This document shows, one piece after another, positions 39,602-63,915 of a stretch of DNA of 64,000 bases. The stretch's first letter is position 1. Every line of letters starts with the position of its first letter. The translations under genes and the position numbers were made by a program. The stretch is from a virus (Duplodnaviria > Caudoviricetes). The stretch spans positions 64,001 to 128,000 of IMG/VR virus record IMGVR_UViG_3300037067_027684; one strand, given 5' to 3'. Below the pieces are notes generated by a model, which saw only the letters and a program-made list of their open reading frames with translations, was not told the origin of the DNA and ran no database searches.

Positions 39602-39718
39602 CCTCCCCAGAAGAGGGAGGAAGTGCCACTATGTCGTTGAGGACCACCAGCGGACTCCTCAGAAACATCCTCCTGATAGCGCCGATTGGTACCTCCCCAT
39701 AGAGGGGAGGAGATGCCA
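39602..39718 (+). promoter_or_regulatory. Two copies of the CTCCC-N16-TGCCA motif, 90 bp apart
   Basis: CCTCCCCAGAAGAGGGAGGAAGTGCCA and CCTCCCCATAGAGGGGAGGAGATGCCA. Confidence 0.65.
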
Positions 39719-39984
39719 CGACGACGGCGGAGGAAAAGAGGAAGCGCGTAGATGACGGTCAAACAAGAAAGGGGTTAAGATGAGTAGGATGAAGTCTTTC
39801 TCAGTAAGCTTTGGCGAGGGATTGAAGGACGTGCAACTAGACAATTCATCTTTAAGGAGGGAAGCTTGTGCGATAAATTAAATTTCTAAATTGTCTTGCC
39901 AATTATTGCCGGATTCGATACGAATCGATACCAATTACCGGACGACGCGCCTACGGGCGCAAAAACCCCAAAAGGAGAAACACA

Positions 39985-40494
39985 ATGAGTACTACGTTTG
40001 GTTGGACCAAGGTCGGGGCGTGCAAGATTGTGGCTCAGGATGAAGCTCGTGTTCGCATTCTGCTTCCTGGCCGCAAGAATCCGCAGTGGGTCAGCAAGAC
40101 TCACCTTCTGCCGGTTCCCGCCAGTCTCCGCCTCCTGAAGAAGGCTGAGTTTGACCAGAAGTGCGGCTGCACGTCCTTCGTGGATGTGAATGGTCAGAAG
40201 GTTGAGACGTACAACGTGTACGGTTCTGTGGGCAAGTACCTGAAGTCTGGCATCAGCGAAGGTCTGGACGCCAGCGCTCATCACCGCCGCGTTTTCCTCT
40301 CCGAGAAGGGTTTCGTTCGGGCCAAGGGTGCGGTCCGGAATGCTAAGGACCTTGGTGCGGTTCTCTTCAACTACCAGAAGGATGGTTACAAGATCCTTTC
40401 GGGCGAGAAGAAGGCCAAGGCTCCGAAGATTGTTCCGGTTATCGTTGAAGCTCCGGTTGCTGCTCCGGTTCCCGAGGCTGTTCCCGCCGTCTGA
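39985..40494 (+). CDS. Basic protein with GC-rich codon usage and Ala-Pro tail
   Basis: SD AAGGAG; UACG-loop hairpin upstream; EFDQK..SFVDVN..NVY..KDGYK. Confidence 0.75.
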   Translation: MSTTFGWTKVGACKIVAQDEARVRILLPGRKNPQWVSKTHLLPVPASLRLLKKAEFDQKCGCTSFVDVNGQKVETYNVYGSVGKYLKSGISEGLDASAHHRRVFLSEKGFVRAKGAVRNAKDLGAVLFNYQKDGYKILSGEKKAKAPKIVPVIVEAPVAAPVPEAVPAV

Positions 40495-40513
40495 AGTTAC
40501 TCCTGAGGAAGAA

Positions 40514-40541
40514 TGGGGTGCCGCCTGTCTGGGGCACCCCA
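40514..40541 (+). terminator. Hairpin after 39985-40494
   Basis: TGGGGTGCC/GGCACCCCA; no U tract. Confidence 0.35.
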
Positions 40542-41726
40542 AGTCGTATTCATCTTGACGGCATGAAGTGAACCCCTTGAAGGAAAACAGTCATGGAAGA
40601 GAAGACTCCAATTCCCGAGAATTGGCTCTACGAGGTCGGCATTGAAGATCCTCGTCCCCCTTCTCCCGAAGAATTTGCAGAAGCGCTACGAACTCTGGCT
40701 GATTACCCGACTCTGTTTGCATTGATTTTGGATTTGAAGCTTGCAGTTCAGAGGATTGAGAATTGTCCTAAAGCCCCGCCAGAAATGTTGAAGCTGGTGA
40801 AGGCATATAAGCCTTGTATTAATTGTCTAGTTGATGATGCTAAGCTTCTTCTTGAGAAGATGCGCCGTGATCATGAGAATGGTCAAGGTATCAGGAACAA
40901 GGAAGATTCAAATGGATGACGGAGCAGATGTTTCAATCCGATGGGTCAGGCATAGGAAGAAAGGTCATATTCCCTATGGAACTATGGCTTGGAATAAACG
41001 TTTCCTTGGAAAATGGCATGCCAAAATTGACGGCGAACCAAGAACATGTTGCGGTCGATATAGTTTGAACCCAATGTGTATGGCCACCAGCACCAAGAAA
41101 CGTCATCTCTGTGAACGATGTCGGAAGGCAATTGTGACACTCCACAAGGCAATGAGCGCTATGTGCTGCTAATGGGGGATTATGATGGCAAAACATAAAA
41201 CATTCCCAGAAACACTCTGGGAATCTGTGGAAAGAAACAAACAGAACGAGCAGAAGCAGAACGAGCAAAAACAAGAGGTAATAGCCCTAGCAGGCTACGC
41301 TCTTTTTCTTGGACGTTGGGATCAAGACGAATTGGCCGACATATGCAAATTAAGTCTTGATGATCTCATTCCAGACGGAATTAAAATGGAAGATGCACAA
41401 GATGCTGCTATACGAGCCAGTAATAAAATTTTCATGCGAAGTAAGAAGCTTTACACTATCCTAAAGCGTGTTGCGGCTTCACACTGTGATTAGAGGTATC
41501 AAAAATATGTCGGAGGTAATACAAATGGCATCGAAATCACTGAATGTTGACGAAAGCAAATGTTTGGTCGCCGTTCGTGATCGAAAAACCAAGCAAATGC
41601 GACAGTGTCGTAACAATCGTGCAGATGGAAAGTGTTGTGTTATTCACGCAACAGCACAAGATTGTGGCGATACTTTGACGTTTATTAAGTAATCACCGTA
41701 TTGTGTTGTCCAACGTATATAAGAGC

Positions 41727-42524
41727 ATGAGAGACAACACGAATCGATACCAAAATCTCCAACAAGAAAAGCAAGCTGCTGCTCCCTTATGTGCCTGTGG
41801 TTGTGGTCAAAAGGTCCTTTGGAATTTACATGGGCATTCCTATAGGAAGTATTTGTTCAATCATCATCAGAAAAGAATCTTTTCCGAAGTCCTCTCTCCA
41901 AGACAAGAACAAATAGTGAGAGGAACCCTACTCGGAGACGGAAGTCTCTCTTTCATAAAGAGTAGAAAGGGACCAGAATTAGGTGTTGCTCGATTGAGAG
42001 TACGACATTCAACTGTTCGTCAGAAGGATTATACTTGGTGGCTTTATGAGGAACTTAGGAATTTCACTTCTAGTCCCCCGAAAGAGGGGCCAAATAAAGG
42101 CTTTGGAGAAAGAGTTATTGCATTCAGTACGTGTTCTACCAAACAACTATATCAAATAGGCAAAGAAATTTACTCCCCAGTTAAGGGAGTGACATGGGAT
42201 TATTTACAAAAACTCGATGATCTTGGTTTGGCGATCTGGTTCATGGACGATGGATCAACAACCTCTTTTGCCACACATTCGTTTACGGTTCAAGAGAATG
42301 AAATAATTCAGCGTTGGTTTAAAGAAAGATGGAATTTAGAATGCCTAATACAAATAGACGAAAGAGTTAATAAGCCATTTATTCGCTTTAGACAACCCAA
42401 TGTCTATAAATTACATAAGATTGTTTTTCCACATGTATTACCAAGTCTTAGATATAAATTCAAATATTGCTTGCCATACCTACTGGCCGGAAAAGCATCT
42501 GTTTCAGAAGGTCTTCAAAGCTGA
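41727..42524 (+). CDS. Free-standing LAGLIDADG homing endonuclease with CxCGCG N-terminal module
   Basis: IVRGTLLGDGS, LAIWFMDDG, THSFT, PLCACGCG. Confidence 0.88.
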   Translation: MRDNTNRYQNLQQEKQAAAPLCACGCGQKVLWNLHGHSYRKYLFNHHQKRIFSEVLSPRQEQIVRGTLLGDGSLSFIKSRKGPELGVARLRVRHSTVRQKDYTWWLYEELRNFTSSPPKEGPNKGFGERVIAFSTCSTKQLYQIGKEIYSPVKGVTWDYLQKLDDLGLAIWFMDDGSTTSFATHSFTVQENEIIQRWFKERWNLECLIQIDERVNKPFIRFRQPNVYKLHKIVFPHVLPSLRYKFKYCLPYLLAGKASVSEGLQS

Positions 42525-42582
42525 TTTAGCCGTAGACACCAGATCACCCCACGATACCACGTCAAACCGAAAGGAGGAGTCC

Positions 42583-43779
42583 ATGCAAGCGCCTATCGAG
42601 ACGCGTGATTATCAACAGCGTATTATCACCAAAGTTCTTGCTGAATACAAAAAGGGACTTAAGTCAGTGTTATTGGTAAGTCCTTGTGGGTCCGGGAAAA
42701 CGGTAATGGGATTAAGTATTCTTAAAATTCTAGAAGAGCTAGATCCGACTCTGACATTTGGTTGGGTGACAATGCGTAGGAAGCTGTTGCAACAAGCATT
42801 CATAGAAAATGAACGCATTGGTGTTAAGAACATAGAATTCATTTCTATGTTCGATAGGAATCCACCGAAGAAAAGGTTTCTGGTGATTGATGAAGGGCAT
42901 CATGCTGCAGCGGCTACTTGTGCTAATCTTTATTCTATTATGGGCATTGAACGTTCGTTGGCTCTAACTGGCACTCCATTCCGTACTGACCGAATCAAGC
43001 TTTCTTTCGAAAAGATCGTGGATGATTGTGGTGTTCGTTTCCTGATTGAGAAGGGTTACTTGAGTCCGTATCAGCAGTTCGTGATTCCTAAATGGACTCC
43101 AGATACTGTTGCTAAGATGTTTCTACAAGACCCAAAACGTTGGGGTAAGTCTGTCATCTATATGAAGACAGTAGAGCTATGTGATGAAGTAGTCCGTCTC
43201 CTTGATCTGGGTGGCATTAGATCCAGAGTGATTCATGGTGGACAGTCGAATGAGACTCACGAAGAAATCTATGAATCCTTTGAATCTGGTGAGACACAAG
43301 CGTTGGTAAATGTCTACCTTCTCACTGAAGGTTTTGACCTTCCATCGCTGCAAACTGCCTGGATTAGAGATAGTGGGAAATTAACCTCTATTCAAATGGG
43401 AGGGAGAACGCTTCGTAAGGACCCGAATAATCCTGGTAAGATTGCGAATATTGTGCAGTCCGAGGAGACTTGGTTCCCTTATACGAAGGTGGCTAAGCCT
43501 AGTGGTGAGTTTGTGTGGCAGGATGAGGAATGGCGCTCGATTGAGGCTAATGAGCGGGTTGCTAATGTTAGTGATATGGTTCGCAATGAGATTTTGACGT
43601 TGCCTGTGGAGCTTCCGGCTTATTTGGAGTATGGTGCTGCTGGTTCTATTCGGGTGAATAAGAAGGGTAAGGTTACGGTGCGGAAGTCTCGTAAGGTTGT
43701 GTCTATGGTGGCTTCAATGTTGGGTGCTTTGGACGCTGGTGAGTTTGACGATGATGGGGATTTGGAGGCTGCGGTGTGA
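42583..43779 (+). CDS. Superfamily 2 (DExH, ResIII/UvsW-like) helicase
   Basis: RDYQ, SPCGSGKT, IDEGHH, LTGTPFRTD, LTEGFDLP, QMGGRTLR; SD GGAGG before 42583. Confidence 0.9.
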   Translation: MQAPIETRDYQQRIITKVLAEYKKGLKSVLLVSPCGSGKTVMGLSILKILEELDPTLTFGWVTMRRKLLQQAFIENERIGVKNIEFISMFDRNPPKKRFLVIDEGHHAAAATCANLYSIMGIERSLALTGTPFRTDRIKLSFEKIVDDCGVRFLIEKGYLSPYQQFVIPKWTPDTVAKMFLQDPKRWGKSVIYMKTVELCDEVVRLLDLGGIRSRVIHGGQSNETHEEIYESFESGETQALVNVYLLTEGFDLPSLQTAWIRDSGKLTSIQMGGRTLRKDPNNPGKIANIVQSEETWFPYTKVAKPSGEFVWQDEEWRSIEANERVANVSDMVRNEILTLPVELPAYLEYGAAGSIRVNKKGKVTVRKSRKVVSMVASMLGALDAGEFDDDGDLEAAV

Positions 43780-43830
43780 AGCTCGTGATTATTATGGGTT
43801 GAAAATTCCAAAGGGAGAAGGGAGGTAGGC

Positions 43831-43983
43831 ATGTGGATTGTCATTTTGCTGGCCATAATCGGGGTTGCCTATGTTCTTCACTCTGTTGATAAGAGTGGGA
43901 TGCTAACTCTCTTGTTTATGGTTTTGGCCATGATTATTGCTGGAATATTCCGAATTTTAAATGTGATAAATACCAGCCTCTAA
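43831..43983 (+). CDS. 50-aa two-TM membrane protein (not in ORF track)
   Basis: SD GGAGG; MWIVILLAIIGVAYVL..MLTLLFMVLAMIIAGIF. Confidence 0.6.
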   Translation: MWIVILLAIIGVAYVLHSVDKSGMLTLLFMVLAMIIAGIFRILNVINTSL

Positions 43984-44296
43984 GCGCAACAGTTTTCTGC
44001 TGTGCTTCCGGCGATACTCCGTAGGAGAGGGTGATGGGGAGAGACTCCCCAAGAGGAGAAAATGTCAAAACCCAAACCAAAATTGAAGAGACTGAGGTTA
44101 GAGCAGTTTGCTAATGACTTTATTGATAGGTATAAGCATATTGTAGATGAATTCATTGATGATCTTGATGTTATGAATAATGTGGTTTATGACGATGGAT
44201 CAGATGATGAACAGATTGAGAATCGAAAGCAAGTTCGTATTTTTCTAATCGATCGGCTCACAACTCACCTCAAGAATCGTTGAAGAGGAGGAAGAA

Positions 44297-45457
44297 ATGA
44301 CTGTTACACTTCCGACGTTTGAGTACAGCGTTCTGAGGATCAAGGATCTAGAAGTTGTAAGCACGATTTCTCCTGAGGGAGCGATTGTTGTAGACCATAT
44401 TAAAACTGGTGGCAAGATTCTAAATCCTTCTCGGAGGTTCTGGGATAGTCTTTGCGCTCGTTTTGGTTTCGGTCCAAGTATTTTCAAATATTTCTCTCAT
44501 GCTGAAGTTTTCCAACGGATTAGTGAGAAATCGTCCAAGGACATGGTTCGGCTGGCTGTCCAGATGACCCCTTATGGTTTTGAGTCTCCGAAGGACTGGA
44601 AGCCGAAGTTACTGGCGCTTTCTAGCCCTAAGGGTAAGGCGGTTTTGACCAATACTGACATGATTCAGGTTTTTGAGGAATTGCCCTTGCTCTCAATGAC
44701 TTATCATGATGGTATTGTTACTTCGACTCATCCTTGTCGGAATGTTATGAGTTGGGATATTGAGGGTGCGACTTTTACTTCGCAGTTGATGATGGAGACT
44801 CCTCTTGATGGTTATGGGAAGCCGACTGTTTGGTTGTCTGTGGCCAAGGAACTTGGGGGTGAGGATGGTGTTACTTTTACTGCTTATTCTAAGAAGTTTA
44901 GGAGTGGGATTATTCTTGGCGATAAGAGTGCCGCCTTTACTTTGAAGCGGGCTGTTGAGTCATTTTCGAATGAGGATGGTTTTGTGGCGTTGAAGCAGCG
45001 TATGGAGGCTGCTACTAATTCTTGGTCTTCTGTTTCTGAGTGTGTTCGTTTGACTCGGATTTTGTATTCTCTGAAGAATTCGGATTTCAATCCCGATTAT
45101 GCGTTGACTGTTGTTCCCAATGGCGTTGACTCTCTTGAGGGGACTCTTCGGAATCGGTTGATTTCTGCTCTTCATGAGATTACTGGTGATATTAGGACGC
45201 TATATGGTGTGGCTCAGTTGGATTCGATTTCTGAGAAGAAGATGAAGTTGCTTCCTACGAAGTGTAGGATGTTTACTTTGATGGATTTTGCTACTGATAT
45301 TGCTACTCGTCAGGTTTTGCCTGAGGCTGCTCGTCGGCTTCGGTCTTATTTTGGTGAGTTGATTTCTAATGAGTATGATTTGGAATCTTCTGGTGAGAAG
45401 TTTGGGTCGTTCCAAGACTTTGTTGATAAGTCTGAATTCAAGAAGGAGGCGGTATAA
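44297..45457 (+). CDS. Hypothetical protein, possibly DUF932-like
   Basis: 386 aa; RFW.SL..RFGF..SIFKYF.H.EVF.RI, TP.DGYG.P. Confidence 0.5.
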   Translation: MTVTLPTFEYSVLRIKDLEVVSTISPEGAIVVDHIKTGGKILNPSRRFWDSLCARFGFGPSIFKYFSHAEVFQRISEKSSKDMVRLAVQMTPYGFESPKDWKPKLLALSSPKGKAVLTNTDMIQVFEELPLLSMTYHDGIVTSTHPCRNVMSWDIEGATFTSQLMMETPLDGYGKPTVWLSVAKELGGEDGVTFTAYSKKFRSGIILGDKSAAFTLKRAVESFSNEDGFVALKQRMEAATNSWSSVSECVRLTRILYSLKNSDFNPDYALTVVPNGVDSLEGTLRNRLISALHEITGDIRTLYGVAQLDSISEKKMKLLPTKCRMFTLMDFATDIATRQVLPEAARRLRSYFGELISNEYDLESSGEKFGSFQDFVDKSEFKKEAV

Positions 45458-46460
45458 TGGATCGTTCTCCACTTGGGTGTGCAATTGCACAACACTTGAC
45501 TGCTGCTCTTCTTGGTGTTGATACGAGCAATTATGAGAGTCGTGCTACGGCAGTCTATGCTGAATGTTCGGGTATTGCTAGGGAACAAAAGGTTGGCGAT
45601 TGGATTGAGATGCCAGATGGGACTGTTTACACAATGACGTTTAAGCCAAAGAAAGGAGATTCGAATGCCTAAAACAGCCAAAGAACTTGCTATTGGGATT
45701 GTTAAATGGTTAGAGCTTGATCCCGACATGAAGTGTGAGATCGTTGAAAAGAAAGATGGGTCGATTGATATTAACCTTGCCTCAGAGGGAGAGGAATTCT
45801 TCATCCAGGACTTTGCTGAATCTGGCATGAATATTAAGCAGATTGGTTCTTGTAAGCATGACGGTCGAACTGAGAATATTTTCGAAGTTAATGGCGACCT
45901 TTTCGGCGAGAATGCCAAGGCGATTGCGATTTGGGTAATTGGAGACACCTTCTAATGAATACTTTCACCCAATGCGCGGTCTGTGGACAGAAATGCGAAG
46001 ACGGATCATTGTGTGGAACATGCGCAAAAACTCCTTCAATGCGAAAATTAACTGACCGTGAAGTTCTCGATCTGGCAACCAAGATTAAGCATCGCCAAAT
46101 CATGTTGGCTTATGGGGCCTATTGTCGAATGCTTTATGGTTCGAAAGCTGCGATTTTTGAGATTAGTCTCCAAACTGAAGTGGATTCCCATAGTGGTGAA
46201 TATTCCAGGATCAAGCGCGTTTATGTGAAGGATGATCACGGTGATATTCTACAACCAGATTTCTCTTTGCCTTTTTGGTTGGACATGGCAAAGGAGGGTG
46301 GTAGAGTTATTGCTGGTAAGGCTGTAATTCCAAATGATTGGGTTGCGAACATTATTAATGAGTTGATTGATGATAGTTGTCTTCCGATTGTGGTTGAGAA
46401 TATTGAGCATCACCTTGATGAACCTGAGACTCTTCCTGATGTCTTTGTGGAGGATGAGCC

Positions 46461-48221: not shown

Positions 48222-48228
48222 TTTGCTA

Positions 48229-48255
48229 CCTCCCTGTAGGGGCTAGCGGATGCCA
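48229..48255 (+). promoter_or_regulatory. CTCCC-N16-TGCCA motif
   Basis: CCTCCCTGTAGGGGCTAGCGGATGCCA upstream of ATG 48292. Confidence 0.6.
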
Positions 48256-48291
48256 TTGTGTTATTAGGCCAAGAATAAAAGGAGATTCAAA

Positions 48292-48633
48292 ATGGCTAAA
48301 TTACGTATACAACTTGGAACAGATGGCTATTGGGGAGATGATCCTAGCGAATCATTTCGAGATGGTAGTCGTGACTTTCGCAAGTCCTTTGCAAAGATTG
48401 AAGAGAAGCTAGAACTTAAAGAGGTTGATTCCGGTTATGATGGCGACGGCGTTGGGTATTTTGAATATGAAGCTCTTAGTCTAAAAGATGAGAAACAAGT
48501 TGAAGAAGTCCTTGGTTCAATCAAAGATTGTGACCTGAATTCCGTCGAGAAGGTTGATGATAAGTTTGTGGTTGAGATGTGTGTTGTAAATCCAAATCCG
48601 TCTGACGAAGAGGGTGATGAAGAAGGTTGGTAG
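48292..48633 (+). CDS. Acidic hypothetical protein
   Basis: 113 aa; conserved leader sequence. Confidence 0.65.
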   Translation: MAKLRIQLGTDGYWGDDPSESFRDGSRDFRKSFAKIEEKLELKEVDSGYDGDGVGYFEYEALSLKDEKQVEEVLGSIKDCDLNSVEKVDDKFVVEMCVVNPNPSDEEGDEEGW

Positions 48634-48659
48634 AAACCAGGAATAAAAGGAGATTCAAA

Positions 48660-49517: not shown

Positions 49518-49528
49518 TCAAGCGTGGT

Positions 49529-49557: not shown

Positions 49558-49573
49558 CTGTAAGGAGCCAGAT

Positions 49574-52500: not shown

Positions 52501-52781
52501 GGTGGTATCTGTGTCGGATACCAACAAACAGAGAAAAGTTTTTCTCTTTCCCAGAAAGCGAGGGTTTTCTTGTGGAAGATCATATTAGTACGCCCATTGA
52601 CGAACAGATGATGCCTTGTCCTAAATGTCAAACACTTCACTACCACAACGTTGAAAACATTGTTAATTGTAAATGTGGAGCTAGCCTTAAATTTGCAGTT
52701 CCACTTTTGTTCTGGGACGCAATGCCTTACGGATGGAAGTGGGTCGTTCAAGAAAAGGCGGAGCTTAATGCCTCCCTATAG
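49574..52781 (+). other. Tightly packed array of small early-type hypothetical genes
   Basis: Consecutive 60-220 aa ORFs with SD sites and ATGA overlaps. Confidence 0.7.
50690..51352 (+). CDS. Minimal ATP-dependent ligase (adenylation domain only)
   Basis: Motif I KADGWR, III LDTEW, IIIa FVIDV, IV EGMVGK, V WVKIK; no OB-fold. Confidence 0.75.
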   Translation: MIYTYGDKPLRDFKTNIAHYSDGNWFFSTKADGWRTRIVRDKSQRIISPFGQSSWARGRDKSLFFLSSRDMKKGGPTQIPVSEEIVKSVEALDLADLSLLDTEWMARRTIGECLEKLFVIDVAVLADKSFADETYYQRKNIREELLVGKLTSCLDALEETSVNLQEFYDKMTTIPWTEGMVGKHKNSKLKASSFTSVDNPLWVKIKWRDGSSGRDTYQSI

Positions 52782-52797
52782 AGTGGAGCGGATGCCA
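52771..52797 (+). promoter_or_regulatory. CTCCC-N16-TGCCA motif
   Basis: CCTCCCTATAGAGTGGAGCGGATGCCA upstream of the AAA operon. Confidence 0.6.
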
Positions 52798-52855
52798 CGG
52801 TGTTGTCGTGGGGAAGGACAATCGCAAGGGAATCCGCTGGAGAAAGGAGATTTAC

Positions 52856-52972: not shown

Positions 52973-52998
52973 AGACCTCTAGAAAAGGAGAGAAGACG

Positions 52999-55900
52999 AT
53001 GGCTGAAAAGAAGACTGCTGCTGTTGTTGAGTCGCCAACTGAAGCACGGATCATTAATTACATCAAAGCGGCCTACCCAATTCTGTGGCTGCAGACTGCG
53101 GAAGAGTCTCGTGCTGAACGCGAACTCCTCAATATCGCCAAGAAGATGCAACGTCGGATTTCGGTGTGGAGTTTCACCGAAGGATTCCTCAACCTGCAGG
53201 AAGATGGCAAGGAATCCCGCGCCTCTGGCGATGCTTCCTCTGAAGATCCTATTGAAGCTCTGAAGAAGATCAAAGACGAGGCCGCTAATGTTGGCCAAAT
53301 CTACATCTTCCGTGACCTTCATGCGTTCTTCAACAATCCGAAGGTTGTCCGATTGCTTCGGGACATTGCTCGTGAATTCAAGCAGGGCAAGAAAGTGCTG
53401 GTCGTTCTCAGTCCGTTGAATAAGCTGCCGCCTGAGGCGGAGCGTGACATCACCTTGGTTGATTATGGACTCCCGAATCGTCCGGTTATCACCAAGATTT
53501 GGGATAACATGTACGCCAAGAACAAGACTGGTATCGTGAAGACCAATGGCGATAAGGAATTTTCTGCCGATGAACATGAGAAGATTTCTCAGGCTGCTCT
53601 TGGTCTTACGACTGTCGAAGCTGAAAATGCTTTTGGTAAGGCTGTGATTGAGTGGGCGGCTCTTCCGATTGAGGATCGGCCTACCATCAGTTCTCTGGTG
53701 ATGAAGGAGAAGGCTGCTGCGGTCAAGAAGTCTGGTATTCTGGAATATTTCGAGCGGCGTGAGTCTATCAAGGATATTGGTGGCCTTGAGGCTCTTAAGA
53801 GTTGGCTGGATGTCCGCAAGCGGGCTTTGTCGCTCTCTGCGCGGGAATTCGGCTTGCCGATGCCTCGTGGTATTCTGCTGGTGGGGTTGCCTGGTTGCGG
53901 TAAGTCCTTGGTTGCTAAGGCTACTGCTGGTATTCTGGGCGTGCCTCTAATCCGTTTCGATATTGGCCGCGTGTTTGCTGGTCTGGTCGGTCAGTCTGAG
54001 ATGAACATGCGTTCTGCTCTTCAGACGATTGACGCTATCGGCAATTGTCTTACCGGTGATACTCAGGTAACGATGAAGGATGGATCTCTCCTTCAGATCG
54101 ACCAAATTAAGGTTGGTGATGAAGTTGCTTGTGTTGATGAGAAAACCGGCAAGATCACTACAACCAAGGTAATTCATGTTCAATCTCGTCGTAAGGATAC
54201 CATTCGTCTCTCGAATAAGAGTGGTGATTCGGTAACGGCGACTTTGGATCATCGGTTCCTTGTCCTCACTGATGGTGAAATGGTTTGGAAGCAAGCCTCT
54301 GAATTGAAGATTGGTGATTTGGTTGGTGTGCCTGTGAAACTTCCTTTCAATAAGGATGTGTCTGTTTTGGATCTGCTTCCTAAAGAGGCTAGGATCTATG
54401 GCGTTGATCGTTCTGATAAGAGGGTGCCTGCCTACGTTCGTTGTGATTCGGAGAAATATCCTGACCCATTCATGAATAAGTGCCTTATGACCAAAGATGA
54501 ATGGCTCTCGAAAGACAAGCATCGAGTTTCTACAGGCGCTGGTCTTTATCTCTCTGAAGTTACTGTGCCATCTCGGATTTCAGAGGAAATGTGTTATGTG
54601 GCTGGTCTTGTGGCGAGTGATGGTCATATTGGTGGTCGTCATGTTGGATTCACCAATAGTCAGAAATTGCTTCATGAACCAGTTAGGAACTTCATGAAGA
54701 GTCTATTGCTGAATCCTGTGACTCGGGAATCATTGGCTGATTCCAAATACGAATCATACAAACAGTTGTCTGGGATTTCTGAAAATCCCAGCCTTGCTGT
54801 GATCGAAGAGACTAAGACTTGTGGTAAGCTTTTTAGCCAAATCTTCAGGGCTTTACAGGAAAAGTTGCTTACATTAGACCCTGATCTTCTTCGTTGGTGG
54901 TTGGCTGGCTATGTAGATGGCGATGGTTCTACATCGCTTCCTCAACATCCTGAGAAGATTGTCATTTGCTCTAAGAAGAGCAAAAATGCTCAGCTTGTTC
55001 GTGAAGTAATTCGAAGGTTGGGCATCATTCCTCCTAAATGGGATGGAAAGGCAATTGAGGTTTCTGGGCAACGCGCTAGAGATCTCGCTATTATGTTGAC
55101 TAATAAGGTTAAGACGCCTTGGAAGTCTGACAACATCAAGAGTATCATTCGTTCTGAGAAAGTCGCTTCTAGTCGTGATTCTGGGTTTAAGGTTGGTAAG
55201 AAACTCAAGGCACTTAGAAAGAATGCTGGAATCAAATCGACTGCAATGTCAGTTGGTTCTGGCTCGATTTCTCGCGCCGAAAGTGATGTTTCGATTTGTG
55301 AACAAACCCTTAGTCGTATTAATGACGATCTGAAGGGTTCTTTCGATTATCTCCTTAATTCTGATGTCCGATGGGTACCAATTACCAAGCTTGAGGAAAT
55401 TGGTGAAGAGACCGTCTACGACATCAGTTGTGAGGGCGATAATACTCATAGCTTTATTGCGAATGGGATTGTTGCACATAATTGTGTCGTCTGGATTGAC
55501 GAAATGGAGAAGGCGTTCGCTGGCATGGGTTCGTCCAGCACGACTGATTCTGGTGTTAGCCAGCGTGTCTTCGGTTCTTTGATCACGTGGATGCAAGAGA
55601 AGAGCAGTCCTTCGTTTATGGTCGCCACAGTGAACCGAATCGAAGGTCTTCCTCCGGAATTGCTCCGTAAAGGTCGCTTCGATGAGATTTTCTTTGTCGA
55701 TCTGCCGACTGCTAAGGAGCGTCAGGAGATTCTCAAGATTCATCTTGAGAAGGATCGTCGTACTGAGGAGTTCCAGGATGGCGCTTGGCGTTATAAGTTC
55801 GATGAGGTTTTCAAGAATAAGTCTGAACTTGAGAACTGCATTTCTGCTTCTGAGAACTTCAGCGGTGCTGAACTAGAGGAAGCAATCGTGACTGCTCTCT

Positions 55901-56103
55901 ATACGGCTTATTACCGTGATGATAAGGCGGCTGATAAGTTCGGCCTGTACATCTACGGGGCGATCCAGAACACTCGTGCTCTGGCTAAGACGAATGAGGG
56001 CCAGTTAAAGGCGATGAAGACGTGGGCTGAGAATAATGCGGTCCATGCTTCGATCAAGGCTGGTACGAAGAAGGCTGACGCTCGGACGTTGGATATTGGT
56101 TAA
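52999..56103 (+). CDS. Ycf46-like AAA+ ATPase, intein-containing (555-aa extein)
   Basis: T.EE.RA N-domain, KKSGILEY, IGGLEALKSWL, Walker A GLPGCGKS, Walker B VVWIDE, LPPELLRKGRFDEIFFVDLP. Confidence 0.9.
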   Translation: MAEKKTAAVVESPTEARIINYIKAAYPILWLQTAEESRAERELLNIAKKMQRRISVWSFTEGFLNLQEDGKESRASGDASSEDPIEALKKIKDEAANVGQIYIFRDLHAFFNNPKVVRLLRDIAREFKQGKKVLVVLSPLNKLPPEAERDITLVDYGLPNRPVITKIWDNMYAKNKTGIVKTNGDKEFSADEHEKISQAALGLTTVEAENAFGKAVIEWAALPIEDRPTISSLVMKEKAAAVKKSGILEYFERRESIKDIGGLEALKSWLDVRKRALSLSAREFGLPMPRGILLVGLPGCGKSLVAKATAGILGVPLIRFDIGRVFAGLVGQSEMNMRSALQTIDAIGNCLTGDTQVTMKDGSLLQIDQIKVGDEVACVDEKTGKITTTKVIHVQSRRKDTIRLSNKSGDSVTATLDHRFLVLTDGEMVWKQASELKIGDLVGVPVKLPFNKDVSVLDLLPKEARIYGVDRSDKRVPAYVRCDSEKYPDPFMNKCLMTKDEWLSKDKHRVSTGAGLYLSEVTVPSRISEEMCYVAGLVASDGHIGGRHVGFTNSQKLLHEPVRNFMKSLLLNPVTRESLADSKYESYKQLSGISENPSLAVIEETKTCGKLFSQIFRALQEKLLTLDPDLLRWWLAGYVDGDGSTSLPQHPEKIVICSKKSKNAQLVREVIRRLGIIPPKWDGKAIEVSGQRARDLAIMLTNKVKTPWKSDNIKSIIRSEKVASSRDSGFKVGKKLKALRKNAGIKSTAMSVGSGSISRAESDVSICEQTLSRINDDLKGSFDYLLNSDVRWVPITKLEEIGEETVYDISCEGDNTHSFIANGIVAHNCVVWIDEMEKAFAGMGSSSTTDSGVSQRVFGSLITWMQEKSSPSFMVATVNRIEGLPPELLRKGRFDEIFFVDLPTAKERQEILKIHLEKDRRTEEFQDGAWRYKFDEVFKNKSELENCISASENFSGAELEEAIVTALYTAYYRDDKAADKFGLYIYGAIQNTRALAKTNEGQLKAMKTWAENNAVHASIKAGTKKADARTLDIG
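54046..55482 (+). mobile_element. Intein with LAGLIDADG endonuclease (479 aa), inserted just before Walker B
   Basis: CLTGDT, ATLDHRF, VAGLVASDG, LAGYVDGDG, VYDIS..FIANGIVAHN|C. Confidence 0.93.
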
Positions 56104-56155
56104 ACTCAACGAGGACGGGGTAGCATTTGGCTACCCTTTTAGAAAGGAATAAAAG

Positions 56156-57124
56156 ATGCCTAGTTTTTCCAAGCAAATGCTTTTGGGTCTCTATCAGGAA
56201 GAGAATACTCGGTTCGAAATTCTTGGATATATGTGTTGGTGGAATATCCGTAACGTGCAGTTGACCCAAAGTCAGTTCGGAAAGATGTTGGAGGATTGCG
56301 GTCTGAATCGGAAGTATGCTCGCACGCACAATTATCGGTCTGCTTTCATCCGTGCTCTCCGGAATTTGGAGGAGCAGCGAATTATCCGTAAGGTCGAGGA
56401 AACTGATCGATATTTGGTCTATCAGTTCACGGCTGAGCAGAAGATTAGTGAAGGTCAGACTGCTGAGTTGGAATATGATCAGGAGACAATTGTTGTTCTC
56501 GATAAGGAGTCTTATTATAAGGATCAGGATTTCCTTAAATCTCTGGTCAAGGGCCGTGAGGATATCCGACAGGCTGTGGCTTCGCATTTTGAGCGTGAGC
56601 GTGTTGCTTATTCGTCTTCTGATATCACTCGTTATGTTCAGAAGATCATGGGCGATCAGGCTGATTATGTGAGTATGCGTGAGCAGGGTTGTTTGTACTT
56701 TGTGCCTGCTGGTTTTCAGGGTACGGTTAGTGCTTGTGAGCGGTTGGTCCAGATGCTTGGTGGTGGTTCTCGTTTCGATTCGATGCCTGTTCCGAATGTT
56801 CAGGCGAATCGGATGATGGTTGGTGCTGCTGCTACTGATGAGTTGCGTCGGTTGTATGAGAAGTTGGCTGTTGAGGTTAAGGCTTCGGTTGATACTGCTA
56901 CTGATAAGTGGACTGAGGGTAAGTTGGTTGAAGTGCGTTCTATTCTTGCTCGTATTGGTATGTATGGTGATGTGATGAAGGAGAAGGAGCGTGAGAGTTT
57001 GGTTAATGATTTCTCTGCTCTTGAGAAGGAGTTGTTCCCTGATCGTGAGTTGGATTTGACTCCTGTAACGGAGACTCCGGTGGCAGAGCCTAAGAGTGCT
57101 GAGGCTGCTGCGACCCCTGTCTAA
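56156..57124 (+). CDS. DUF6744/DUF3150-like protein
   Basis: LGY.CWW.I, AF.RA.R.L, R.QG.LYFVP; directly follows the AAA gene. Confidence 0.45.
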   Translation: MPSFSKQMLLGLYQEENTRFEILGYMCWWNIRNVQLTQSQFGKMLEDCGLNRKYARTHNYRSAFIRALRNLEEQRIIRKVEETDRYLVYQFTAEQKISEGQTAELEYDQETIVVLDKESYYKDQDFLKSLVKGREDIRQAVASHFERERVAYSSSDITRYVQKIMGDQADYVSMREQGCLYFVPAGFQGTVSACERLVQMLGGGSRFDSMPVPNVQANRMMVGAAATDELRRLYEKLAVEVKASVDTATDKWTEGKLVEVRSILARIGMYGDVMKEKERESLVNDFSALEKELFPDRELDLTPVTETPVAEPKSAEAAATPV

Positions 57125-57129
57125 GGGGG

Positions 57130-57198
57130 ACTCCCTAGAGAGGGGAGTGATTGCCACTATCATAGTAGGGGAGGAGCGGGTGTTCCGCTCCTCCTCCC
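57130..57198 (+). promoter_or_regulatory. CTCCC-N16-TGCCA motif plus downstream GC hairpin
   Basis: ACTCCCTAGAGAGGGGAGTGATTGCCA; GGAGGAGCGG/CCGCTCCTCC. Confidence 0.6.
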
Positions 57199-58176
57199 AT
57201 TCTAAGGAGATTTGAAATGATTAAGTCCGTGAAGGAAGTTGAAGATGCGATGGTTGAGTCTGTAGTTCAGGTCCTTCATCCCAATGGGAATCAATATTTT
57301 ATTGCTCAGACGCGTGGCGAAGTTCAGCCCGCTTATTCGCGCAAAGTACGAACTGCTGCTTTTGTTAAGGTTTATGGGCGCAATCCAGAGAACGATGTGG
57401 AATTGTTCAGTAACACACCGATTATGTTCACTCCTGGTGTTTTGGAACTGGAGTGAAAGGAGGAATCATGAGTAAGGCTGAGCAACAGCGCAAGCATGCT
57501 TTCCGTCGCTCTAGGGAGCGTGTTGAGGGTAAAATTACTCAGAATGATTATGTTCAGATCATCAAGATGATTCAGACTGGTAAGGCTTGTTTTCTTGAAC
57601 GTCAATCGAATCGTGTTACTTTGTGGATTCTTGTTTATAGGGATGAGCCTGTTCGGGTTGTTTATGATAAGGTGCGTAGTCAGGTTGTATCGTTCCTTCC
57701 GATTGAGGAGGAGCATTTTAACAAGCTTGAGGCTTGGGAGGAGAAGAGAAATGTACAAAATACAATGGCGCAGGCAGTGGTCCCAAACTCTAACTGATGG
57801 GTTGTCGAAATATCCAAGTCTTGAGGCGGCTAATCACCAAGTTGTGATTTGGCAATCAATTTTCCGAGATAATGAGTACTTTGTGATTTTAGGAGATTAA
57901 CATGGTAGTAATGACCAATCCGCCAGATTCCACAACTCCGCAAGAACAGTTGGTTGGAACTAATATTCCTGAATTCTTCGCTAGTCTAAAGATTGCTGCT
58001 TCTACCGCTATCGGCTATAGTTGGAGGCCGGTTATGGTGTTTCGAAATGAAGAGAACAAGCGTGAATTTATAGCCGTTGATAAGAAAGACGTTCAGATGT
58101 TTCGCTCCACTCACAAAAAGTGGAGAAGAATTGTTACGGTGACACCTCACATTTTTGAGAAATAGGAGGCTAAGCA

Positions 58177-58452
58177 ATGCCTTGTTTCACTTTGGTGCAA
58201 GTCGAGGTTAAGGATAAGGTGATGGCAGAGAGGGCACTCAAGAAGATGGGTGCCAAAGCCTCCATTGAGAAGAATGCCAATGGGACTTATACTGTGACTC
58301 CCGCAAAGCAGGATGCCTCATTCCGAGACACCTTCATGTCTGAATATGCCGCGCAGGTAGCCACGGCTAAGGCTCAGGCGGATGGCTACACAGTTACACG
58401 TCAAGAAGTTGATGGTGAAACTGTCCTCTATTTGAGGGATTATTCGTCATGA
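58177..58452 (+). CDS. DUF1257 (Ycf35)-like protein
   Basis: MPCFT.V.VEVKD....RAL.KMG..F..EYA.......A...GY.V...E.DG...L.L. Confidence 0.55.
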   Translation: MPCFTLVQVEVKDKVMAERALKKMGAKASIEKNANGTYTVTPAKQDASFRDTFMSEYAAQVATAKAQADGYTVTRQEVDGETVLYLRDYSS

Positions 58453-59576
58453 AGAAAAGTAATGTCATGAAAACACACATGCATGCTCCGCCTGAACAAG
58501 TGAAGCTGGTCAAGGACTTTCTGAAGCACACAAAGAAACACACAATCTCGATTTTCTCAGAGGATTGGTGTAGACATTGGACTAAGTATTCCAAGTCGAA
58601 TTATCTTCGATTGATTACTTTGCTTAGGAAAGTCTATAGCCCAGTTGATCTATACGACCACAATGATGAGTTTAAGGCAGTTCTCATTATCATGGGTGTT
58701 AGGTTGGCATGGGGAATTCATGCTAGTCGTGCATATAGGTATGCTTATGTTCAGCGTTATGCTTTAGACGCGGGGTGCGAATACACAATTTTGTCTAATC
58801 ATGATTTTTCAAAGATTGATCCCAATTACCCATGGGAGAATTGGGATATCTTCCTAAAGGAGTGAAAAATGAAAATTTTGCTAGCCCCTAACAAAGATGC
58901 AGTTGGTACTGGCACACTTGATTTCTGCCATACAACTCCAGGCGAATTACTTGTGGTTTCTTCTTCTAGATGCTCCAAGGGCACTGTTGAGGATGAATGT
59001 GGTTGTCATCGCTCGATGACTGGAACTCAATCAAAGAAGGGCACAACAATTGGTATTGTTGCTGAGATGCCTGAAGGTGAGGTTATGAAATGGGTTAAAC
59101 ATCGCTCTGACAATTATTATTCCAAAATCGATGGTGCATCAGATGAATTAAAGAACCATTTAACAGCATGGACCATGCGTGAGCTTAAGCTAATTGCCGA
59201 TGATATTAGTGAAATTCCTGTTGGTTCGCGTGTTGGTTTCGCTTTTACGAATAGCACAATCGATATCTTCCGCGCTGGTGAGCGCAAGAAACATGGGGTG
59301 TAAACATGGATTTCGATAAAATGACGGAGCTTACTGATAAGATGGAGGTAGAGATTAGAGAGCTTAACCATTTGTCCAAGGCTTGTTTGACACTTGGCCT
59401 ACATGATTTGGCCGACAAACTAGCATGCTCTGCCGTGGAATTAAACAATATTTCCCACGACTTTAAAGTTACTGTCGTAAAAGATTTGGATCAACGTTAT
59501 AAGCAGGCGCAGCAGTTCTCTGCTACTGTTCTGGAGGCTACCTTGACAGGAATTGCCCTTGGGAAGGAGGCTCCAA

Positions 59577-59771
59577 ATGAAGCAAGTAATCGTTAAAATT
59601 GGGAAAGGTGGTCGAACCAAGATTCTTGCTGAAGGGCCACTTGGTGCTGGTACTGAGAAGTTTACAGCTGAGTTGGCTAGGGATCTGGGTACTATCCAAG
59701 AGCGACATGCAGGCTGGTTCCACACACACAACGAACAACATACTCATGTAGAGGGACACGTCCATGATTGA
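59577..59771 (+). CDS. DUF2997-like protein 1
   Basis: MKQVIVKIGKGG.TKI.AEG..G....FT.ELA.DLG...ERH. Confidence 0.55.
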   Translation: MKQVIVKIGKGGRTKILAEGPLGAGTEKFTAELARDLGTIQERHAGWFHTHNEQHTHVEGHVHD

Positions 59772-60423
59772 TGAAGATAAGGAAATTGAGCATCCGTCAT
59801 TTGGTTTGATCGGTCTTGCTCGCACTTCTGGTGGTGCTAAATTGTTTGGGTCATCGGTTGACCATCACAATTATATTAGTCTTACGATTAGCCGAGCTAA
59901 GTTGGTTCGTGGTTTGCATCATGATCATTACTACTCTACGGAGGATATTATTGAGGTTGCTTTGTCGCCTAATCAATTGAGTGAATTGCTGATGAATATG
60001 AATGTTGCCGAGGGGGTTCCGTGTACACTTCATCGTATTCTTGTTGACGGGGTGTATCAAATGGTCCCTCAGCCTGATGAGGTTAGTTCGTCTACTAAGA
60101 CTTATGTTGATGAATTTAAGGAGCGTATGGCTAAGCTGGCTGAGCAGGCGGCTAGTTTGATTTCTCATGCAAGGTCTGTGGCTGAGAAACCCACTGCTAA
60201 TAAGACTGAGCGTCGTGAGTTGACTCATGAGTTGGAAATGATGGTTCAGGAGTTGAAGAATAATATGCCTTTCGCTCTTGAGAGTTATATTGAGCAGGTT
60301 GAGAAGGTTGTTACTCAGGCTAAGTCGGAGATTGAGGCTCATCGGGTGGCGATTGGTGGTACTGCTACGGTTAATCCCAAGTTGCTTGCTTTAGGGGAAT
60401 CTAAGGAGGTTAAGAATGCGTGA
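59764..60423 (+). CDS. Conserved-looking phage hypothetical protein
   Basis: EHPSFGLI..R..GG..LFGS, EV.LS..Q..EL..MN..EGVPCTL. Confidence 0.65.
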   Translation: MIDEDKEIEHPSFGLIGLARTSGGAKLFGSSVDHHNYISLTISRAKLVRGLHHDHYYSTEDIIEVALSPNQLSELLMNMNVAEGVPCTLHRILVDGVYQMVPQPDEVSSSTKTYVDEFKERMAKLAEQAASLISHARSVAEKPTANKTERRELTHELEMMVQELKNNMPFALESYIEQVEKVVTQAKSEIEAHRVAIGGTATVNPKLLALGESKEVKNA

Positions 60424-60595
60424 GATTAAGATAGTGATTTCTAAAGGTGGAAAGCTTAAGATGCTGGATAAGGATGGCACTTCGGCTCAATTTACCGAGA
60501 AGTTGGCCAAGGAACTTGGTCAAACTGAGGAGCGTCATAAAGGAGGAAATTACACTCAAAATGAGCAAAACACGGAAATCCAACAAGGCCATTAA
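60416..60595 (+). CDS. DUF2997-like protein 2 (not in ORF track)
   Basis: MREIKIVISKGGKLKMLDKDGTSAQFTEKLAKELGQTEERHKGG..; SD AAGGAGG; clear paralog of 59577-59771. Confidence 0.7.
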   Translation: MREIKIVISKGGKLKMLDKDGTSAQFTEKLAKELGQTEERHKGGNYTQNEQNTEIQQGH

Positions 60596-60830
60596 GTGGC
60601 CGTCTCGGAAAGAGATTCGAGATAAAATGATCAAAGACTGTCCTCAACTAGCTGCTATTCCTCCTTCTGCCTTTAATTTCTATACTAAGGACGAGTGGGC
60701 AGCGATGGAGACAATATTCAGGTTGAAGGTTGAACAACCTAATAAATTCCAGAGGATAATTGATATCGTCAAGGCGAAACACTCGTCAGAAATCAAGTAA
60801 GGAGTGGATAGAACTCTAAGGAGAAAAAGA

Positions 60831-61559
60831 ATGCCGACCTACATCTGCAAAGAACATGAGGACCGAGGTGAAGCAACCAATGCATTCTGGAAATATGAAC
60901 TTGAAGGAAGTACAGGAGTAACGATCCGGTTCGGTCGGATTGGTTTAAAAGGACAGGAAGTCAAGAAATCTTTTGATAGCCAATCTGCACGTGACAAATA
61001 TGTCAATGATAAAATCCGTGAGAAAACCCGTCACGGCTACCAACTTTCCAATGAGGAAACATTGGCGAAGGAGACACAGACGGCTAAGGAGCTTGGGACT
61101 CAGTATAAGATTCGCCGCATTCAGTGGGTTGCTAGGAAGGGTTCTAAGCTTAATTTCATTCTCAACTATGAGCCTACGCAATGGGTTTATGTTGAGATTC
61201 TGAATTCTTGGAAGGGTGACGTTACTCGTCTGATTCTCTCCAAGACTGAATCCCTTCAGATTGAGGGCACTGCTGAGTCTAACCGAGTCATTGAGTTTGA
61301 TTCTGTGCAATCTGCTCCGTCTGATTTCGCAAAGGCTGTGCGCAATTATTTGCGGAGTTTGGCTAAGAAGGTTGTGGCTGTCGCTCAGAAATTTGCAGCG
61401 ATGGGCAACCGTGCGTTGGATTTGGGGTTTGGTGATTCGGATGATGAAGAGCCTACACAGCAGGCTGCGGATCTTTACGAGCAGGTTGCTGAATCTGGGG
61501 CTACTGCTCAGGTCATTTCGAAGTTCGGTGGACTTGGTGAGCGTATGTTGGAGTTGTAG
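60831..61559 (+). CDS. WGR-domain protein
   Basis: NAFW.YEL....V.IRFGRIG.KGQ...K.F.....R.K....I.EK...GY. Confidence 0.8.
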   Translation: MPTYICKEHEDRGEATNAFWKYELEGSTGVTIRFGRIGLKGQEVKKSFDSQSARDKYVNDKIREKTRHGYQLSNEETLAKETQTAKELGTQYKIRRIQWVARKGSKLNFILNYEPTQWVYVEILNSWKGDVTRLILSKTESLQIEGTAESNRVIEFDSVQSAPSDFAKAVRNYLRSLAKKVVAVAQKFAAMGNRALDLGFGDSDDEEPTQQAADLYEQVAESGATAQVISKFGGLGERMLEL

Positions 61560-61594
61560 GGTCAAACCCAACCAAGGTTAAGTAGATTGAAATA

Positions 61595-62302
61595 TTATCC
61601 TGGTTGGTATTGGCTGACGTTTGCTGTGTAAATTGGAGCGCACCAAGTTGGTCCGTCGTTGAGGGTTGTGTAACTGCCATATGGTAGGGAGTCGCTACTA
61701 GATCCTTGCCATATGGCTCCAAACTGGTCATCGATCAGACAATAGAGGGTTATAACCCATCGACAATTAACAGTATCGTAACTCACGATTATTCTGAAAT
61801 CTTGTAGAATGGTGTAACCAATCCAGGAACATCGTGGATATCCTTCTTCTTCAGCCCGTGTCATTGGTGAAAGTATCATTAATTCACTACCAGTAAACGA
61901 GTTACTGCAACCACATATTTCTTGTTGGATGTAAACCGCAACTCCTTGGGCATCTAGGAATTGTACTGTGAGATATGTTAGATTAAATGTATCTATATCA
62001 AATGGACAAATACATGGTGTTGGATATGGGGATGGGGATGGAGATGGTGTTGGTGGGTATCCTGGGACTTCTTCCTTAATGGTTTCGCTGATGTGGTCTG
62101 CTGGGACGTTGCCGCAGCATTCTACTAGTCCTGGGGTTGTGTCTACGAACATTTCTACACTGCCGGTTAGGGCATTTAGAGTTACGCCTGGTATGGTTAG
62201 GGCAGTTGCTAGTGGTATTTCGTTGGCTCCGTAGTCAGGGATTATTACGAATCCATTTATGACTGGGAATCGTCTGACAATGGTGATGTCTTCAAAGCTC
62301 AT
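61595..62302 (-). CDS. Cys-containing probable structural protein with Pro-Ser linker
   Basis: PPTPSPSPSPYPTP; isolated - strand gene with CAAATATA upstream. Confidence 0.55.
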   Translation of the reverse strand: MSFEDITIVRRFPVINGFVIIPDYGANEIPLATALTIPGVTLNALTGSVEMFVDTTPGLVECCGNVPADHISETIKEEVPGYPPTPSPSPSPYPTPCICPFDIDTFNLTYLTVQFLDAQGVAVYIQQEICGCSNSFTGSELMILSPMTRAEEEGYPRCSWIGYTILQDFRIIVSYDTVNCRWVITLYCLIDDQFGAIWQGSSSDSLPYGSYTTLNDGPTWCAPIYTANVSQYQPG

Positions 62303-62340
62303 ATTAAGTACCCCATTTCCTAGACTATATTTGTCTTGGT

Positions 62341-62475
62341 GCTCCCGTTTATGTGATTGTGAGCGGTACTCCGGATGGTACCACCGTACCGGCGATACCG
62401 GTAGCTTGGCGTCCTGTAAACGGGACGGGGCGTGGTTTGGCCGGTCCGGACGGGTTCGGCGCGGGTTCTCCGCGA
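62341..62475. ncRNA. Candidate structured RNA / GC-rich intergenic element
   Basis: Hairpins TACCGG/CCGGTA, CGTCCTG/CGGGACG and CGCGG/CCGCG; shares TAGCTTGGC and CGGGGCGTGGTT with 37326-37351. Confidence 0.4.
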
Positions 62476-63888
62476 GAAAGGAACGTAAGATGAAACACAG
62501 ACGACCTCCTCTTGATGATGAATGTGGATTAATCTGTATTATTCTTAAGGGTCATTACGTTGTTCCTGGTTCTTTTGGTCTAGGTAGTGCGGATTCGATT
62601 AGGCGATTTATGATGCTTCCTGGTAATGGGAAGTACATGGATAGTGGTTACGATGGAATGAAGAAGGATGGCTACAGGTTGGCTGATGTTCGTCTCAAGG
62701 TTGTGGGTATTAAAGAGATTTGATAAGGAGTCTAAGATGAAATGTCAAGTTTGTCATGGTAAGGGTTGGTCTACTTTCGATTATGATGGTAAACCTACCA
62801 TTCAGCGTTGTGACGCTTGTATGAAATTCAATTCAGATGTTGCTGCAGCCAAGGAAGCTAAGAAGACTGGTATTAATGTCCGTCTTCGGTATCCATGTTT
62901 CATTCAGCGCCCGTATTTCAAATGACGCATTTGGAATAAGGAGAAATTTTTCATGGAACTTTCTAAGGCAGATCTGGATGATTTGGGCTTTAAGGTTATT
63001 GAGAAGGATCGAGGTTTTGGAGGTAAAGCTTGGAATCTAGTTAGGATTCAGTTGGAATCTGATGGTATTTATGATACTGAACCTGATGTTGTCTTCTTTA
63101 AGAAGGGTTCTCGGGAATTTGTGTTGGTTGGTTGTGCTTTGGAGGGGCATGGTACGTTTCGGATTTATGAGGTGAAATTATGAATGGCATTCCGCGATAT
63201 CGTTTTCAGGATGAAGTATCAGAAGATTTGAGGGGTCTGCCTAAGGGCGATTGTGAATGGCCAGGATATTCTGTCGTCTGGGATAGGCTGCAATCAATAG
63301 CATTGAAAATGGCCATGAGTAAAGGACATAATTATTTGTCCGAAGACCATTTGCATACTATGGCTGTTCTTGGTTGTGGTCATGAGGAGACAATGAAGGG
63401 TTGGCTTCTGCACCTTACGGATATTGGGTGGAAATGGGAGAAATAACAAATGCTCTACTTAATCATTGGTAACCAAGTTTCATTCATGGATAATGGACTC
63501 TCATGTGATAATGATGGAACTAGTATTTGGCTTGTTGAGGGCGAACAAGAAGCGAAGAAAAGCGCTCAGGATTGGTGGGATAAGAAATTAGTCCCAAAAG
63601 AAGAAGACGATGATGATACGGAAGTATACCTTAACATTAAGATATTCCCTGCTATAAATGGTTTGTCATTTAATCATGATGGAACTACACAAGCAAAGTC
63701 AATCTTCGAACTGGAATCAGATAGGATGAATAACACATGATTGAACAGGTTCTTCAAGAAATAATTGACAGTCTACCTCCTGTTGATAAGAAAGAGGAAC
63801 TAGATTCTTACCTGGAGAGTGTTCGGAACGAGGAAGAAGATATTGGTATCCTCAAGATGATTCCTGAAGAAGAGATTGCCCTTTACAA

Positions 63889-63915
63889 CCTCCCTAAAAA
63901 CCCGAGCAGATGCCA
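63889..63915 (+). promoter_or_regulatory. CTCCC-N16-TGCCA motif
   Basis: CCTCCCTAAAAACCCGAGCAGATGCCA just upstream of GGAGG and an ATG near 63937. Confidence 0.55.

Follow-up and report, generated by a model that had tools for sequence, protein, structure and literature searches.

The stretch of DNA analysed here (termed 'the window'), which spans bases 64,001-128,000 of one virus contig of 246,684 bp (IMG/VR record IMGVR_UViG_3300037067_027684) and is 64,000 nucleotides long, carries six copies of a rigidly spaced, two-part motif that constitutes a real, statistically clear and lineage-specific promoter-like signal. The motif is composed of two boxes, (C)CTCCC and GCCAC, located exactly 17 bp apart, and its geometry is that of the -35 and -10 elements of sigma-70-family promoters. 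Judged from its sequence and context, it very likely represents a phage-specific promoter class that is read by one of two sigma factors encoded by the phage itself. The particular version of that explanation in which the second of these factors ('sigma2'), riding on the host's core RNA polymerase (RNAP), is the reader seems probable.

A first-pass annotation of the window had described the motif at six positions, all in one orientation and with a fixed 17-nucleotide gap between its two halves. All six copies are present as exact matches to the described pattern on the plus strand, yet each begins one nucleotide further on than was reported (at 39603, 39693, 48230, 52772, 57131 and 63890); dinucleotide-shuffled sequence yields 0.00 such matches. 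A looser search with CTCC-N17-TGCCA returns the same six matches in the window, against 0.33 expected. A scan that permits two mismatches recovers nothing beyond these copies, and one that permits three adds six unrelated matches, which is the level of chance (4.3 expected). A weaker reverse copy at 8315-8341 had been suspected of being coincidental, and can be treated as such because it does not appear even among the three-mismatch matches.

The rigidity of the motif is equally evident at the scale of the entire genome. When 16 copies are aligned without gaps, every one of them has TCCC and GCCA unchanged, with exactly 17 nucleotides between the two. The pattern CTCCC-N17-GCCA occurs 15 times in the genome, as compared with 0-3 times at the other spacings from N12 to N22 and 0.3-1 times in shuffled sequences, while the shorter core TCCC-N17-GCCA occurs 25 times, as compared with 4-8 times at spacings of N15, N16, N18 and N19. 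In an unbiased, genome-wide search for dyads, only twister ribozymes and a coding tandem repeat ranked above the motif. Its information content, corrected for small sample size, is approximately 34 bits, where approximately 15 bits would specify this many sites.

Within the window, the first two copies (39603..39629 and 39693..39719, both on the plus strand) form a tandem pair that heads a rightward gene array; the first scores 39 bits against the position weight matrix (PWM) and the second 42.6 bits, the best of any copy. The pair had been assigned to a divergent control region, and its members do indeed lie 90 nucleotides apart at a point (about 39.58 kb) where the GC skew changes sign. The second is found 60 nucleotides before the ATG (39780) of a 33-amino-acid open reading frame (ORF), which is followed at 39985 by an ORF of 169 amino acids. 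The remaining four copies, also on the plus strand, had each been placed some 20-60 nucleotides upstream of a start codon, an arrangement borne out by ATGs with Shine-Dalgarno (SD) sequences 21-60 nucleotides away, at 48292, 52856, 57217 and 63937. The third (48230..48256), an exact match, begins 8 nucleotides past the stop codon of the upstream gene and ends 35 nucleotides before the first of these ATGs, that of a 113-amino-acid ORF. The fourth (52772..52798) ends 58 nucleotides before the ATG of a 38-amino-acid hydrophobic ORF, after which lies an intein-containing AAA+ ATPase gene (52999-56103). The fifth (57131..57157) begins 6 nucleotides past the stop codon of a DUF6744 gene, with a GC hairpin at 57173-57203, in its presumed leader, ahead of the start codon at 57217. 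The sixth (63890..63916), again an exact match, overlaps the 3' end of a 67-amino-acid ORF and ends 20 nucleotides before the ATG at 63937, giving the shortest leader. As a separate observation, the AT skew, strongly negative until then, also turns positive at the tandem pair (window positions ~39.4-39.8 kb), marking a compositional boundary between genome halves.

Across the whole genome, in which genes were called crudely (as longest ORFs, by greedy choice), 16 clear and three weaker copies can be recognized. Seven clear copies occupy the plus strand, at genome positions 103603, 103693, 112230, 116772, 121131, 127890 and 131997, and nine occupy the minus strand, at 166859, 177426, 201798, 222988, 223064, 224757, 226945, 227020 and 227091. 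The weaker copies consist of one at 162127 (minus strand), a degenerate one with 18-nucleotide spacing at 224245 (minus strand), and one at 227092 (plus strand) that is back to back with the copy at 227091. The suggestion that the motif is confined to an 'early-type' half of the genome holds up at this scale, in that every copy falls within 103.6-227.1 kb and none falls in the other half. Genes run on the plus strand as far as about 151 kb, and most of those from 152 to 227 kb are on the minus strand; every copy is oriented in the same direction as its local downstream genes. Ten copies in the genome end 20-65 nucleotides before a start codon with a good SD sequence, copies often start only a few bases past the preceding stop codon, and neighbouring tandem copies are 71-90 nucleotides apart. 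The pair at 103.6 kb and a triplet at 227.0 kb head the rightward and leftward arrays, respectively, since the GC skew changes sign exactly at both.

The targets of the motif include RNA genes as well as protein-coding ones. Two copies have a twister-P5 ribozyme downstream, with a leader in between, and the degenerate copy at 224245 ends 49 nucleotides before the gene for a tRNA-like RNA, which scores 41.5 bits against the Rfam tRNA model and contains a 112-nucleotide insert. Because the motif precedes genes of both kinds, a role in transcription fits better than one in translation. The motif-bearing half of the genome encodes a helicase, an AAA+ ATPase, DNA and RNA ligases, a methyltransferase, a nuclease and many small genes; the motif-free half encodes tail genes and mixed functions, and a search of that half for a second (late) class of motif detected none. 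A direct repeat of ~26 nucleotides that contains CCATGG was also observed in two copies, with a G-rich tract alongside, at about 227.12-227.35 kb of the genome (L004:14120-14345); the two copies lie in the gap that separates the divergent promoter cluster from the first gene running rightward, and may be operators.

A third sequence element accompanies many of the copies. The pentamer AGGAC, the best of all pentamers downstream of the motif, follows the GCCAC box at a distance of 0-17 nucleotides in 8 of 15 copies, where 0.5 would be expected (p about 8e-9), with examples at window positions 39640-39644, 52814-52818 and 63928-63932 and next to the motif copy of a distant relative described below (L008:9253-9257). 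Its variable distance from the boxes suggests a separate leader element or a site for a second factor, and one rather unlikely possibility is that motif and AGGAC together form a composite three-part signal read by a sigma factor plus a second phage factor. Dyads of the form TTTCC-N5-GGAAA are found in the same half of the genome as the motif, but none is adjacent to a motif copy. GC-rich hairpins were noted 15-20 nucleotides past the GCCAC box in several copies, including the leaders that follow 222988 and 226945; these would fall where the transcript is predicted to begin, and may act as 5' stabilizer stem-loops.

Two candidate readers are encoded by the phage, in the form of paralogous and very divergent sigma-70-family proteins. 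The first, sigma1 (566 amino acids; window 13071..14771, plus strand), matches PF04542 at 26.2 bits in a six-frame search, which reaches the Pfam cut-off for region 2, and is encoded in the motif-free half, with virion genes and others around it. Within its family, Sigma70_r2 is matched in 11 of 11 members and Sigma70_r4 in 10 of 11. The second, sigma2, is encoded outside the window (genome 133,732-135,654), and in region 2 it is recognizable as a paralog of sigma1 (E = 6e-20; hhalign 99.3%). It has two homologs only among 5.8 billion proteins, between which a region-4-like segment is invariant; an AlphaFold model of sigma2 was unusable (predicted local distance difference test score, pLDDT, of 43). 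The sigma2 gene sits in an operon that is headed by a copy of the motif.

The distribution of promoters of the host type bears on the choice between these two proteins. Such sigma-70 promoters are not enriched, with 74 in the genome as compared with 75-98 in shuffled sequences, nor are they in the motif region (30 as compared with 25.9). Only two near-perfect examples are present in the genome, both of them properly intergenic. One, a perfect promoter (window 36038..36067, plus strand; TTGACA, 18 nucleotides, TATAAT), precedes a gene for a 99-amino-acid Cro/C1-type helix-turn-helix (HTH) regulator (36115..36414, plus strand; Pfam HTH_3, E = 4.7e-7). The other stands directly before sigma2 (L001:5675-5703, genome 133675).

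The same arrangement is retained in the sole distant relative that was read, a 14.7-kb metagenome contig (L008) that encodes a sigma2 homolog of 36% identity. The ligase, a zinc-ribbon gene and sigma2 are kept in synteny, the consensus sigma-70 promoter directly before sigma2 is kept as well (L008:9951-9980), and a single copy of the motif, with the same spacing and register, precedes the orthologous zinc-ribbon gene. The product of that gene is a protein of 70-72 amino acids with four cysteines, encoded directly after the motif and upstream of sigma2 (L001:4056-4274; L008:9276-9488). It is 61% identical between the two phages, and thus more conserved than sigma2, and may partner or regulate the sigma factor. 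A scan of IMG/VR for the motif in other phages produced one chance match, antisense inside an ORF of 1,909 amino acids.

The first-pass annotation had proposed that the motif might supply -35 and -10 elements for the sigma factor encoded at 13071. Of that proposal, the idea of a new promoter class with boxes resembling those elements is the best supported of the explanations considered, but the assignment of sigma1 as its reader is not established, and sigma2 competes for that role on at least equal terms. The preference here is for sigma2, by a moderate margin, because its gene has a host-type promoter, belongs to an operon that a motif copy heads, and is found together with the motif in the relative. 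Under the resulting scheme, transcription upon infection would begin with the host RNAP and its primary sigma factor at very few consensus sigma-70 promoters, namely those of the Cro-like regulator and of sigma2. The phage sigma would next replace the host sigma on the host core enzyme, and the new holoenzyme would start transcription about 6-9 nucleotides past the GCCAC box, at about 16-19 sites. The tandem copies would fire two convergent arrays, rightward from 103.6 to 151 kb and leftward from 227.1 to 152 kb, with single copies inside the arrays boosting transcription, so that motif promoters would drive the non-structural half of the genome in a cascade of the type described for phage SPO1.

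Several points weigh against this explanation. The pairing of sigma2 with the motif is drawn from genomic context and from one relative, in which there is one copy of the motif. Relatives were sought in viral and genome collections by way of sigma2, sigma1 and the zinc-ribbon gene, which yielded only G001 and G002; these are large contigs, though no more than 37-42% complete, and encode a shorter sigma factor of the same family. The motif is absent from both, as is any dyad analogous to it, and their highest-ranking dyads are tRNAs and coding repeats. The boxes are GC-rich and unlike any known sigma consensus, and no sigma factor is known to read CTCCC and GCCAC. Each site holds about twice the information needed to find it, and its spacer is itself partly conserved, purine-rich and almost free of T; together with AGGAC, these features suggest that a second factor or an RNA function may also be involved. 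Finally, the searches with PF00940 and PF03420 had no positive control.

The alternative that survives best retains the same promoter class and makes sigma1 its reader, perhaps as a protein that is loaded into the virion and injected, which would turn the motif copies into immediate-early promoters. Sigma1 is the better supported of the two as a sigma factor, its family matching both regions 2 and 4, and the location of its gene outside the motif-bearing half, where virion genes are among its neighbours, would suit a packaged protein. Members of its family (P0004-P0013) also share an N-terminal leader of ~20 amino acids, of the form M-D/N-F/L-x3-L-D-R-A-L-G ... I/L/V-x-E (sigma1: window 13071-13130), whose (I/L/V)-x-E ending has the form of a prohead-protease or capsid-targeting signal, and which may be such a signal. 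Against this assignment, searches for a T4-type prohead protease, a capsid protein and late promoters found none of the three (those made with Pfam lacked a positive control), the same-family sigma of G001 and G002 is unaccompanied by the motif, and the only motif-bearing relative is known through sigma2. Sigma1 is an unlikely reader, and its delivery with the phage DNA as a packaged factor is a decidedly slim prospect; if true, half of the genome would be switched on without the host sigma. In G001, an unrelated 92-amino-acid ORF that lies beside the sigma gene (71753-72031) was observed to start much like the sigma1-family leader.

A second alternative treats the motif as the site of some other phage DNA-binding protein, an activator or a repressor, acting at promoters that are defined otherwise. 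The 34 bits of information, the conserved purine-rich spacer and the AGGAC element would all be at home in such a site, and the phage has early HTH regulators that might supply the protein. Nevertheless, the motif has neither dyad nor direct-repeat symmetry, its orientation strictly follows that of the genes, no other promoter-like element adjoins it (a TAnnnT box at constant distance is lacking, and sites of the sigma-70 type show no enrichment), all of which make this explanation improbable. An operator, which had been offered in the first-pass annotation as a further alternative, is unlikely because the site is non-palindromic and strictly co-oriented; the specific case of an operator for a dimeric repressor was rejected on a consensus that holds no inverted or direct repeat and on copies that all point the same way as their genes.

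It is somewhat less probable again that the motif acts in RNA, as a processing site, an anti-SD sequence (CCUCC) or a leader signal. The CCTCC sequence is complementary to the SD sequence, copies inside the long arrays are transcribed, and messages of this phage are processed by ribozymes. Nonetheless, RNAalifold predicts no pairs in a consensus structure over the motif copies, and Rfam yields no match to a known RNA family at any of them. Base pairing between CTCCC and GGGAG would be possible in 66.7% of cells, as compared with 64.9% in column shuffles, with no covariation. An anti-SD function would leave the fixed 17-nucleotide gap to an invariant GCCA unexplained, and copies precede the non-coding tRNA-like RNA and head the arrays, where no upstream transcript is expected.

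The explanation that fares worst, and that can be accorded only a very remote chance, is that of a hairpin promoter for a virion RNAP like that of phage N4, or of a promoter for a single-subunit RNAP like that of T7. It was attractive because four window copies can form a CTCCC/GGGAG hairpin, because some copies (CCCTATAGAG resembles T7-class promoters) recall the T7/T3/SP6 core around TATAG, and because the information content is T7-like. The hairpin does form in some copies, as had been pointed out, but it is not a conserved or shared feature of the motif: when copies were folded singly, only 1 of 16 surpassed its shuffles by a clear margin (z = -3.9), and some seven were essentially unfolded. 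The N4 class thus fails on the absence of a conserved hairpin and of a giant RNAP gene, no virion or T7-like RNAP gene having been found. T7-class promoters possess an uninterrupted run of ~23 conserved bp that spans the start site, whereas conservation here is two-part, with TCCC and GCCA as its invariant bases and a variable TATAG-like stretch.

The search for a phage-encoded RNAP was correspondingly broad. The T7-like RNAP domain PF00940 had no match in the genome (a search made with no positive control), nor had Rpb1 domain 2 (PF00623); no DxDGD-type (DFDGD-like) motif was found in any frame or large ORF, and the largest ORFs are tail-like or of unclassified function, none of them with polymerase motifs. 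A multisubunit, YonO-like or crAss-like phage RNAP was rejected on the lack of a DxDGD-type motif and of a PF00623 match, and neither a single-subunit nor a two-barrel enzyme came to light. Two further classes of reader can be set aside from the motif itself. Reading by the host sigma-70 was rejected in this way; TAnnnT is not conserved in the downstream box. A sigma-54 promoter (TGGCAC-N5-TTGC) was rejected because TGGCA is present only in the reverse complement, has no TGC at the required offset and, in that orientation, would point away from the genes.

The use of phage sigma factors for temporal control has been known since the studies of SPO1 and T4, so that what is most likely new here is the sequence of the boxes, for which no earlier record is known, rather than the principle. 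Middle promoters of T4 comprise a MotA box and a sigma-70 -10 element, and are used together with AsiA; the present motif resembles them in having a phage-specific upstream box in place of the host -35, and differs in that its downstream box is not a sigma-70 -10. Bacterial promoters for extracytoplasmic function (ECF) and other alternative sigma factors consist of two short boxes with a rigid spacer of 16-17 bp and a high information content per site. The motif shares those short boxes, that rigid spacing and that high information, but its upstream box has no AAC and its downstream box no CGT, unlike ECF promoters.

Closer parallels come from phages for which sigma-dependent promoters have been described. 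In the Bacillus phage SPO1, early genes are read with the host sigma-A, middle promoters by gp28 and late promoters by gp33/gp34 (PMC13401047). Likenesses to that system include the host RNAP for all transcription, a sigma gene with a host-type promoter and a second phage sigma (proposed here from sequence), together with a proposed redirection of the core enzyme to two-box promoters unlike those of the host. The boxes themselves are unrelated to those of SPO1, being GC-rich with a conserved purine-rich spacer, and in contrast to the small gp28 the sigma factors described here are 566-640 amino acids long and bear large insertions. For gp36 of phiEco32, and for Salmonella phage 7-11, the promoters of a phage sigma were discovered as over-represented intergenic motifs (PMC4331800). 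Motif-based discovery and a small number of host promoters (which in phiEco32 and 7-11 head the early gene cluster) are common to those phages and this one (PMC4331800). The phage-sigma promoters of phiEco32 and 7-11 are a single AT-rich element of ~9 bp that resembles an extended -10, however, whereas the motif described here is a rigid two-box site of ~27 bp.

If the favoured explanation is correct, it would show how transcription is organized in an uncultured groundwater phage of 247 kb, in which a handful of host-type promoters would switch on regulators that include a phage sigma, and one private promoter class would drive about 124 kb of DNA containing non-structural genes, ribozyme-punctuated operons and a tRNA-like RNA. 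The sigma factor and its promoters would then make up a new pair, unusual for its GC-rich specificity and high in information content, which might serve as an orthogonal expression part, and their description would aid annotation of the oversized, insertion-bearing sigma family that is found in huge phages.

Signs of inserted and mobile DNA were noted alongside these elements. Inteins that carry LAGLIDADG homing-endonuclease domains interrupt both the AAA+ ATPase gene downstream of the fourth motif copy and a C-methyltransferase gene (window 27687-30161). The NAD-dependent DNA ligase gene, which is continuous in this genome (128776-130734), is split into two ORFs in the relative by an insertion of ~1.7 kb with two extra genes (L008:3025-6847). 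A full-length transposase gene also resides within the phage genome, at window positions 4681-5832 (PHROG 506, E = 3e-115).

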